Shown here one piece after another: positions 6,351 to 59,285 of a stretch of DNA of 64,000 nt. The notes beneath the pieces are model-generated. The model was given only the letters and a program-made list of their open reading frames with translations. It was not told where the DNA came from and did no database searches. The stretch comes from Escherichia coli (GTDB lineage Bacteria > Pseudomonadota > Gammaproteobacteria > Enterobacterales > Enterobacteriaceae). A program made the translations under genes and the position numbers. The stretch is from the NCBI RefSeq assembly GCF_050920415.1, contig NZ_CP169309.1; one strand, given 5' to 3'. Each line of letters opens with the position of its first letter. Position 1 is the first letter of the stretch.

Positions 6351-7154
6351 ATGAACGCATTATTAACCAATCCCTTTAAAGAACGTTTACGCAAGGACGA
6401 AGTGCAAATTGGTCTGTGGTTAAGCTCGACTACTTCTTATATGGCAGAAATTGCCGCCACCTCCGGTTATGACTGGTTGCTGATTGACGGGGAGCACGCG
6501 CCAAACACCATTCAGGATCTTTATCACCAGCTACAGGCGGTAGCGCCCTATGCCAGCCAACCCGTGATCCGTCCGGTGGAAGCCAGTAAGTCGCTGATTA
6601 AACAAGTCCTGGATATTGGCGCGCAAACTCTACTGATCCCGATGGTCGATACTGCCGATCAGGCACGTCAGGTGGTGTCTGCCACGCGCTATCCTCCCTA
6701 CGGTGAGCGTGGTGTCGGGGCCAGTGTGGCACGGGCTGCGCGCTGGGGACGCATTGAGAATTACATGGCGCAAGTCAACGATTCGCTTTGTCTGTTGGTG
6801 CAGGTGGAAAGTAAAACAGCACTGGATAACCTGGACGAAATCCTCGACGTCGAAGGGATTGACGGCGTGTTTATTGGACCTGCGGATCTTTCTGCCTCGT
6901 TGGGCTACCCGGATAACGCCGGGCACCCGGAAGTGCAGCGAATTATTGAAACCAGTATTCGGCGGATCCGTGCTGCGGGTAAAGCGGCTGGTTTTCTGGC
7001 TGTGGCTCCTGATATGGCGCAGCAATGCCTGGCGTGGGGAGCGAACTTTGTCGCTGTTGGCGTTGACACGATGCTCTACAGCGATGCCCTGGATCAACGA
7101 CTGGCGATGTTTAAATCAGGCAAAAATGGGCCACGCATAAAAGGTAGTTATTGA
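6351..7154 (+). CDS. rhmA: 2-keto-3-deoxy-L-rhamnonate aldolase (HpcH/HpaI aldolase family)
   Basis: ORF 6306..7154; start at ATG 6351 ([24 protein letters not shown]...) preceded by AAGGAA; HpcH/HpaI-type aldolase by recalled similarity. Confidence 0.85.
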
Positions 7155-7194
7155 TATCAAAGGCCCATGGGGATCGGCTGTGGGCCTGTGTTAA

Positions 7195-7368
7195 TTAGTG
7201 GTTATTCGCTGCCAGATCGGCTTCGCTTAGCTGGGTGGCAGCGAGCACCAGGTCACGATCAATGCCCTGTTCCAGCATGCGCAAAGCAATTTTAATGGCT
7301 TGTTCATGCATGCCCTCCTGCCAGCCAATTTGATGCCCTTCCTGCCGTAGCCGTTCAGCAATAGTCAT
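7195..7368 (-). pseudogene. ypaA: ypaA: truncated paralog of the rpnE C-terminus (57 codons)
   Basis: Minus-strand frame ATG 7368 to TAA 7195 translates [35 protein letters not shown]..., near-identical to the start and end of the rpnE C-terminal segment encoded at 7381..7620 (direct nucleotide repeat visible). Confidence 0.7.
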
Positions 7369-7380
7369 CAATCTCTCCTT

Positions 7381-8340
7381 TTAATAACAGTTCGGAATAT
7401 CAGCATCAGTGAGTTGGGTTGTCGCCAGCACAATCTCACGTTCAAAGCCCTGTTCCAGCATGCGCAAGGCAATTTTAATGGCTTGTTCATGCATACCTTC
7501 TACTTTGCCTTTCTGCAAACCCTCCAATTTCCCCTCCTGCCAACCTTCAATTTTACCTTCCTGCCAGCCAATTTGGTGTCCTTCCTGCCGTAGCCGTTCA
7601 GCAATAGTCATCAATTTCTCCTTTTGTAGTGGTGAACGTTCGGCAATCTCCTCAATAAAACGGGTGAAACGGGAGGTATCGCCGCATTGCAGCAGATAAT
7701 TAAACAGCGTTTGTAGCTGGCTGTCATTAGTGAAGCCTCTAACCAAAAGCGTGGTGATCCTGTCGACCATACCGATTAAATCGCGGTCGCGAATATGCTT
7801 TTGAATCAGTTCAAGCAGAGCTATACGCCGATGTTGCATGATCTCATCGTCAGGCACGATGGTGATATCCACCAACGGAAAAGCTTCGGTGTACAACTGC
7901 CGGGCAAGTTGCGGATCGTCAAACTCATCCAGCCAGTTAAGTGAGTATGGGTAGGGCGAGGTTTCGCCGTGATAAAACAGCAACGGCACCACCAGCGGGA
8001 CTCTGTCATAGCCTTTGTCAAGGTGACGCTGCATGGCGGCGGTGGCATAGCGCATTAGCCGAAAAGCCATATTCTTTTCTGCAGAGCTTTGATGTTCAAT
8101 CACGCAGTAGATATAGCCGTTACCGTCGCTGGTTTCCACGGACCACAAAACATCCGAGTAGTAAGCGCGTAAACTTTTTTCAATAAAGCTGGTGGGTTCC
8201 AGGCGTAAGGTTTGCAGGTTGCAAAGTTTACGCAGTGGCTCCGGTAGATGTATTTCGAGAAAATCCCGCGCGGTTTCGGGCGAGAACATAAAGGTTTTAA
8301 ACACCGCATCATGCGGGGAGGAGGTTGTTGATTCGGTCAT
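7381..8340 (-). CDS. rpnE: Rpn-family recombination-promoting nuclease (transposase_31 / PD-(D/E)XK-like)
   Basis: 319-aa minus-strand ORF; N-terminal SPHDAVFK...YSDVLW...IEHQS region typical of Rpn/YhgA-like proteins; C-terminus carries EGWQEGK-type heptad repeats. Confidence 0.8.
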
Positions 8341-8533
8341 GGTTGTCCGTCACCTGATATTTATGATGACGCGACATTACGCGGATCTCAGAACAATGAC
8401 ATCTGCCAGTTTCTGCCTTTGCGAGACGTTTTCAGAAGAATTTTCAAAGCGATGCAACGCATACACTGGATGCGGAATCACGTACGCAAAAATGCCCGAT
8501 AAGCAATGCGCTTACCGGGCATCACAAGGAAGA

Positions 8534-12598
<4,065 letters not shown>

Positions 12599-47108: not shown

Positions 47109-47306
<198 letters not shown>

Positions 47307-50948: not shown

Positions 50949-51051
50949 AAGAAGGGTAAAAAAAAACCGGATGCGAGGCATCCGGTTGAAATAGGGGTAA
51001 ACAGACATTCAGAAATGAATGACGGTAATAAATAAAGTTAATGATGATAGC
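50949..51051 (-). ncRNA. micF: MicF antisense sRNA (represses ompF translation)
   Basis: Minus strand reads GCTATCATCATTAACTTTATTTATTACCGTCATTCATTTCTGAATGTCTGTTTACCCCTATTTCAACCGGATGCCTCGCATCCGG followed by a T-run, matching my recollection of micF with its terminator hairpin; divergent from ompC. Confidence 0.85.
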
Positions 51052-51370
51052 GGGAGATATTCTAGTTGCGAGTGAAGGTTTTGTTTTGACATTCAGTGCT
51101 GTCAAATACTTAAGAATAAGTTATTGATTTTAACCTTGAATTATTATTGCTTGATGTTAGGTGCTTATTTCGCCATTCCGCAATAATCTTAAAAAGTTCC
51201 CTTGTATTTACATTCTGAAACATCTATAGCGATAAATGAAACATCTTAAAAGTTTTAGTATCATATTCGTGTTGGATTATTCTGCATTTTTGGGGAGAAT
51301 GGACTTGCCGACTGATTAATGAGGGTTAATCAGTATGCAGTGGCATAAAAAAGCAAATAAAGGCATATAA

Positions 51371-59029: not shown

Positions 59030-59285
59030 ATGTGCCACATCCGGCATGTTATGCCGGATGTGGCGTATGCTGATAAGACGCGCCAGCGTCGCATCAGTCA
59101 ACCGGCTTGGGCGTTAGATGTCGGATGCGGCGTGACCGCCTTATCCGACCTACGGGGTGGAGCACTTCACAGCGGTGTAGGCCTGATAAGACGCGCCAGC
59201 GTCGCATCAGGCAACCGGCTCGGGCGTTGGATGTCGGATGCGGCGTGACCGCCTTATCCGACCTACGGGGTGCCGCACTTCACGG
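59030..59285. repeat. REP/BIME cluster between convergent mqo and eco
   Basis: Two tandem units about 120 bp apart (…gatgcggcgtgaccgccttatccgacctacggggtg…) plus flanking gccggatg / catccggc palindromes. Confidence 0.8.

Follow-up and report, generated by a model that had tools for sequence, protein, structure and literature searches.

A seven-unit allele of the strain-variable four-residue repeat in the Rpn toxin-antitoxin gene rpnE of Escherichia coli

In the current work, a window of 64,000 nucleotides of Escherichia coli DNA was analysed with respect to the repetitive tail of the gene rpnE, and the repeat present in this tail was assigned, with a probability of about 90%, to the hypervariable repeat of four amino acids (a dodecamer at the DNA level) already known from Rpn toxin-antitoxin genes. 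The extra 60 nt present in this tail, which had been reported in a preliminary description of the same DNA, are real and represent one allele of a strain-variable repeat that is already published, so that this observation is correct but not new. That description, while being broadly right, missed the location of the repeat within the internally translated, putative antitoxin RpnE_S, which had also been published beforehand (Zhong et al. 2023, PNAS 120:e2307382120, PMC10400941). The small additions made here are a signature of exchange in the polymorphisms shared by rpnE and the adjacent gene ypaA, and the observation that the unit counts of these two genes never match in loci that carry both.

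The repeat array and its unit

The full-length coding sequence of rpnE (yfaD), corresponding to RpnE_L, is an ORF of 319 codons located at positions 7381..8340 on the minus strand, and is followed by ypaA (rpnE_Ss; 7195..7368, minus strand), a stand-alone second copy of the RpnE_S domain which encodes 57 amino acids from its own ATG. As had been described, the last ~245 nt of rpnE and the ypaA sequence are direct repeats of each other (82-94% identical), the similarity being distributed over two blocks: positions 7216-7317 match positions 7399-7500 at a spacing of 183 nt (82% identical), and positions 7313-7382 match positions 7556-7625 at a spacing of 243 nt (94% identical). The two spacings differ by exactly 60 nt, and an alignment of rpnE with ypaA by MAFFT correspondingly contains a single gap of 60 nt in ypaA, located between GWQ and EGMHEQ and placed at ~7501-7560 on the plus strand, a register which is ambiguous because of the repeats.

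The repeat unit consists of 12 nt encoding four residues (G-x-x-E), nested in a super-period of 24 nt (eight amino acids). The in-frame reading and repeat searches delimit seven such units in rpnE (7486..7569, minus strand), while two units (GWQE GMHE; 7303..7326, minus strand) were counted in frame in ypaA; the difference of five units amounts to the 60 nt mentioned above. Tandem Repeats Finder reported a period of 24 nt at 7495-7566 (3.0 copies, 75% matches), and the repeat search retrieved three 24-mers which are 71-75% identical to one another. The unit of 21 nt originally proposed is thus superseded by one of 12/24 nt, which is returned by Tandem Repeats Finder, the in-frame reading and the repeat search alike. 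The rpnE gene of a strain with a K-12-sized locus, JME66 (L001 among the loci fetched for comparison), measures 900 nt and encodes 299 amino acids with two units, next to a ypaA of 61 amino acids with three units. The length of ~299 codons given for K-12 in the preliminary description is therefore in agreement with our data, and the presence of seven units in the window versus two in K-12 accounts for the difference between 319 and 299 amino acids.

The nuclease, its putative internal antitoxin and ypaA

The identity of rpnE as a member of the Rpn/YhgA-like family is supported by several lines of evidence. The NCBIfam RpnE equivalog NF007418 scored 706.7 bits (cut-off 583) and TIGR01784 scored 175.6 bits in a profile search (threshold 52.1), and a RefSeq locus with 100% identity carries the annotation rpnE (WP_000140541.1). 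Residues 8-209 (7714..8319, minus strand) correspond to the Transposase_31 / PD-(D/E)XK nuclease domain (Pfam PF04754, E = 1.2e-87), in which the PD-(D/E)XK residues and the PDDE motif are present, as D11, D63, E82, Q84 and PDDE163-166. This numbering is the same as that of the residues mutated in RpnA (YhgA), with which RpnE also shares PF04754 (Kingston et al. 2017, J Bacteriol 199:e00787-16, PMC5350276). In contrast to RpnA, the K-12 RpnE was the sole paralog in that study to show no activity when assayed for recombination, toxicity and SOS induction, and RpnE may nonetheless be toxic by analogy with its relatives. PADLOC, which has no Rpn model, gave no Rpn match in the window, and returned a weak, unrelated 'putative invertase' (E = 2.4e-4). 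The RefSeq label of rpnE itself reads 'ISNCY family transposase'. Matches of NCBIfam FliH profiles to residues ~205-287, being far below the family cut-offs or consisting of repeated weak stretches, and a PDB match to a designer PPR protein (5i9h) were discarded as compositional or coiled-coil noise.

In K-12, each of the five rpn genes has an internal start from which a small protein corresponding to the C-terminus, RpnS, is made, and for RpnA, RpnB and RpnC this protein was demonstrated to block the toxic full-length nuclease RpnL (PMC10400941). The window contains the corresponding elements: an internal Shine-Dalgarno sequence AAGGAGA (7617..7623, minus strand) is located in frame, 5 nt upstream of an internal ATG (7611..7609), so that the entire initiation region spans 7623..7609 and a putative intragenic antitoxin, rpnE_S (7381..7611, minus strand), would be translated as a nested in-frame ORF of 76 amino acids from M244. 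The AAGGAGA motif and the internal ATG are kept in all loci, and M244 occupies the same position as M244 of RpnA, which is a proven internal start (PMC10400941). For K-12, RpnE_S was observed by means of Ribo-RET peaks and SPA-tag detection (PMC10400941; bioRxiv 10.1101/520783), and the resemblance between the product of the internal rpnE start and YpaA had been noted by Meydan et al. (bioRxiv 10.1101/520783) before Zhong et al. An internal transcription start for a short transcript has been reported from dRNA-seq data; it was not visible as a consensus match in a simple sigma-70 scan of positions 7100-8500, which retrieved no promoter-like site.

With regard to structure, RpnA_S is a dimeric three-helix bundle, and in RpnS proteins the four-residue repeats are found in the first helix, 8-20 residues past the methionine and in a number that varies among strains (PMC10400941). 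The array of the window starts at residue 15 of RpnE_S, and its number of units is likewise strain-variable (see below). The N-terminal 11 residues of RpnE_S are identical to those of the RpnA_S crystal chain 7th0, to which phmmer assigned E = 0.15. An AlphaFold2 model of RpnE_S, obtained from an 11-sequence alignment of close variants, reached a mean pLDDT of 67 (~48-56 in the repeat zone), and a Foldseek search with this low-confidence model placed RpnA_S 7th0 on top with a probability of 0.99 and, on the other hand, E = 0.16, a result that is suggestive only. A lengthening of helix 1 by the repeat zone was not confirmed by this low-pLDDT model. At the level of domains, precomputed matches to HTH_Rpn_C (PF27070) exist for 319-aa rpnE products and for the exact YpaA protein of the window, while our own Pfam-A profile search of the tail yielded neither HTH_Rpn_C nor DUF4351, and merely sub-threshold matches to Yae1_N and RepB.

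Taken by analogy with RpnA, RpnB and RpnC, rpnE would encode the nuclease RpnE_L and, from the internal Shine-Dalgarno sequence and the ATG at M244, the small RpnE_S, which would bind and neutralise RpnE_L via its long first helix. The array would be situated in this helix, and a change in the number of units would consequently alter toxin and antitoxin together, the number of units possibly setting which partners can pair. Such specificity was shown for RpnC alone, where RpnC_L is neutralised only by an RpnC_S with an equal number of repeats (PMC10400941), and anti-phage activity was shown for the plasmid system RpnP2. By extension, translation of RpnE_S and YpaA, repeat-specific neutralisation and anti-phage activity are presumed to hold for the RpnE allele of the window.

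The second copy of the antitoxin domain, ypaA, begins 12 bases past the stop codon of rpnE and is preceded by the same motif, AAGGAGA (7374..7380, minus strand), located directly after this stop codon, while the NCBIfam profile NF007418 matches ypaA over its positions 244-308. According to Zhong et al. (PMC10400941), ypaA, named rpnE_Ss by these authors, is a second copy of RpnE_S which is expressed in K-12 and which a deletion or a fusion event may remove. Its RefSeq/PGAP annotation is inconsistent: most records present it as a fragment of a pseudogene ('incomplete; missing N-terminus') beginning right after the rpnE stop codon (a remark based on window positions 7195-7380 and on loci L001-L008, L013 and L019), and a few records give it as a proper CDS, under WP_000150333.1 and WP_000150331.1, with the product name 'Rpn/YhgA-type helix-turn-helix domain-containing protein'.

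One could regard ypaA as a functionless leftover of an incomplete tandem duplication, in which case its difference in length from rpnE would reflect drift. The pseudogene flag set by PGAP in most records and the loss of ypaA through fusion in many strains would be in line with this explanation, which is nevertheless improbable, as ypaA possesses its own Shine-Dalgarno sequence, ATG and intact ORF in every two-copy locus for which both copies were parsed, its array varies in frame only, its expression in K-12 is documented by SPA tag and Ribo-RET (PMC10400941; bioRxiv 10.1101/520783), and it is treated as a genuine CDS in some records, under the two accessions given above. In place of the truncated paralog as which it was first listed, ypaA is a tandemly duplicated, intact and separately translated small gene.

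Unit number among strains and exchange between the two copies

Of 5,426 complete E. coli genomes, 5,420 gave a megablast match to the locus, and the match spans vary across genomes in multiples of 12 nt. Unit numbers were determined for 59 fetched E. coli loci and for an evenly spaced sample of 60 rows from the 5,420 genomes. Among the 59 loci, the internal copy in rpnE was found to contain 2, 3, 5, 6, 7, 8 or 10 units and ypaA 2, 3, 4 or 6 units, and each change in the length of either array is in frame. In the 60-row sample, the match spans correspond to two units in ~35 rows, to seven in ~9 rows and to ten in 6 rows, and imply a few rows with 3, 4, 5, 6 or 8 units. The tail is therefore variable in length, as had been suspected, with 2-10 units in rpnE and 2-6 in ypaA, and an identical repeat number in all strains, which would have spoken against this, was not observed.

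Several loci deviate from the arrangement with two copies. In L009, L010 (BL21(DE3)), L011, L014, L021 and L022 there is no separate ypaA and rpnE ends in a ypaA-like manner (...SEADLAANNH); such fusion alleles, which join the N-terminal domain of rpnE to a ypaA-type tail, carry 2, 4, 8 or 10 units. The array of L021 (O169:H41 strain 2014EL-1345-2) is unusual in that the residues preceding it are themselves duplicated, which implies that misalignment can reach beyond the canonical G-x-x-E units. In L051 (GCA_012187305.1, locus at ~385-1500), the tenth codon past the internal start of rpnE is a nonsense codon, by which RpnE_L is truncated and RpnE_S abolished, the downstream ypaA of six units being intact.

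In order to compare polymorphisms between rpnE and ypaA, 17 two-copy loci were used. The 5' part of the shared region (~122 comparable nt, made up of Shine-Dalgarno sequence, start, head and flanking units together with the initial ~45 nt of the tail) contains 11 polymorphisms common to both paralogs and no fixed difference between them, whereas the 3' part (~55 nt) contains 19 fixed differences and no shared polymorphism. Because of these 11 shared polymorphisms and the absence of fixed differences in the 5' part, the sequences indicate that the two genes continue to exchange the part that bears the repeats, through either crossing-over or gene conversion. Fusion alleles, such as that of BL21(DE3), are the expected products of a crossover between the two direct repeats. 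Of the earlier suggestion that ypaA acts as a gene-conversion donor, the exchange itself is thus borne out by shared polymorphisms and fusions, and the role of donor is partly supported.

Alleles differ from one another by whole units of 12 or 24 nt, the 5-unit allele for instance being devoid of the 'GKIE GWQE' of the 7-unit allele. In the 10-unit alleles, GGTAAATTAGAA GGTTTGCAG is reiterated almost perfectly, and near-perfect duplicated 24-mers are found in the longest alleles, for example GGTAAATTAGAAGGTTTGCAG, which is present three times. These whole-unit differences and near-perfect reiterations fit an in-register misalignment by slippage or unequal recombination. Over an evolutionary time scale, the number of units shifts along two likely routes: in-register misalignment by 12 or 24 nt, caused by slippage during replication or by unequal recombination, and sequence exchange between ypaA and the tail of rpnE. 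Recombination was also suggested by Zhong et al., who term the mechanism of expansion an open question (PMC10400941).

Wherever both copies of a two-copy locus could be parsed (the window, L001-L008, L012-L013, L015-L020, L023-L043, L045, L048-L050 and L052-L059), rpnE and its neighbour ypaA carry different numbers of units. Ten distinct rpnE/ypaA combinations were encountered (7/2, 7/3, 7/4, 2/3, 3/6, 5/3, 6/2, 8/6, 10/3 and 10/6), in which one ypaA of six units is paired with an rpnE of 3 or 10 units, and one ypaA of three units with an rpnE of 5 or 7 units. As the haplotypes are non-independent and ~10 combinations provide no statistical power, this mismatch is not put forward as evidence of selection. 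If pairing in RpnE were specific for repeat number, as it is in RpnC, YpaA would not act as a back-up antitoxin for the adjacent RpnE. One could then speculate, with considerable reserve, that YpaA is an orphan antitoxin directed against non-self RpnE alleles, or that ypaA constitutes a silent cassette from which the rpnE array is diversified by gene conversion; the latter, if true, would resemble a miniature antigenic-variation system for a defence gene.

The distribution of alleles among strains also bears on the rate of change. An array acting as a fast, slippage-driven contingency locus would switch its unit number at high frequency within a clone, similar to phase-variable simple sequence repeats, and the tandem units of 12/24 nt, the near-perfect 24-mers of the longest alleles (with GGTAAATTAGAAGGTTTGCAG in three copies) and the many alleles in the species are features that such a locus would be expected to display. 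Yet the units of the window are just 71-75% identical, and changes in multiples of 12 nt produce no ON/OFF frameshift. Within clones, too, the array appears to be stable: in the 60-row sample, the laboratory K-12 derivatives have one common span, the six rows with a span of 315 nt (one of them labelled ST131) are all alike, and there is tight linkage between ypaA allele and rpnE length, the exact ypaA protein of the window adjoining a 319-aa rpnE in 10 of the 10 places read, which belong to independent records. Near-perfect repeats, shifts in frame or promoter spacing and within-clone variation, by which phase-variable contingency loci are defined, do not apply here, and rapid switching is accordingly quite unlikely; the variation lies between lineages and does not look like phase-type switching. 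The earlier wording 'slippage-prone' was consequently an overstatement, given the divergence of the units, the in-frame changes and unit counts that are constant within clones and haplotypes.

That the extra block would be an artefact of assembly or sequencing in a repetitive stretch, which had been named beforehand as a possible objection and might be prompted by the susceptibility of repeats to mis-assembly and by the small number of genomes (3 of 5,420) in which the 1,251-nt query is matched at >=99%, is refuted by the many independent assemblies with an identical allele, seeing that the 7-unit array is identical at the nucleotide level in L002, L003, L015 and L020, that a 319-aa rpnE accompanies the exact ypaA in the ten places mentioned above, that an equal span is present in ~15% of the spread sample, and that the array, at just 84 nt and with imperfect repeats, is within the resolving power of any read technology.

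Relation to known systems and genomic surroundings

The RpnL/RpnS systems RpnA-E of Zhong et al. (PNAS 120:e2307382120) represent the same family, the same rpnE-ypaA locus and the same M244 start as those of the window. Their four-residue repeat, composed of one hydrophobic residue together with charged residues or Gly, is also the one present here, and their statement on strain-variable repeat numbers extends to every RpnS and RpnSs protein of E. coli. The window thus exhibits no difference in kind, its rpnE and ypaA having 7 and 2 units, respectively, versus 2 and 3 in K-12. A comparable case, cited by the same authors, is the TAEL repeat in HsdS of EcoR124I and EcoR124II, where the number of in-frame units of 12 nt (4 aa) in a helical spacer likewise alters specificity; there, the repeat sets the spacing of the DNA target of a restriction enzyme, whereas the rpnE repeat would set the pairing between toxin and antitoxin proteins. 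In the Rpn tails, the repeat number would adjust how toxin and antitoxin of an anti-phage system pair, and its diversity hints at an arms race, an idea that has already been published and to which the window adds only one further allele.

Elsewhere in the window, matches reaching the Rfam gathering score correspond to the MicF sRNA (116.8 bits) and to several naRNA4/CssrE (REP-like) elements, located at 50959-51052 (minus strand), 47221-47297 and 59068-59263 and being unrelated to the rpnE repeat. The rpnE-ypaA locus itself is flanked by glpC on one side and by yfaU/rhmA and yfaV/rhmT on the other. The mechanically predicted ORF of glpC (8534-9799, minus strand) comprises 421 amino acids, while RefSeq gives 396 amino acids starting from MNDTSF; the upstream extension represents open reading frame outside the gene. 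A G+C-rich hairpin (7161..7187, strand not assigned), identified by consensus match only, separates yfaU/rhmA from ypaA, which are convergent, and is a candidate shared terminator.
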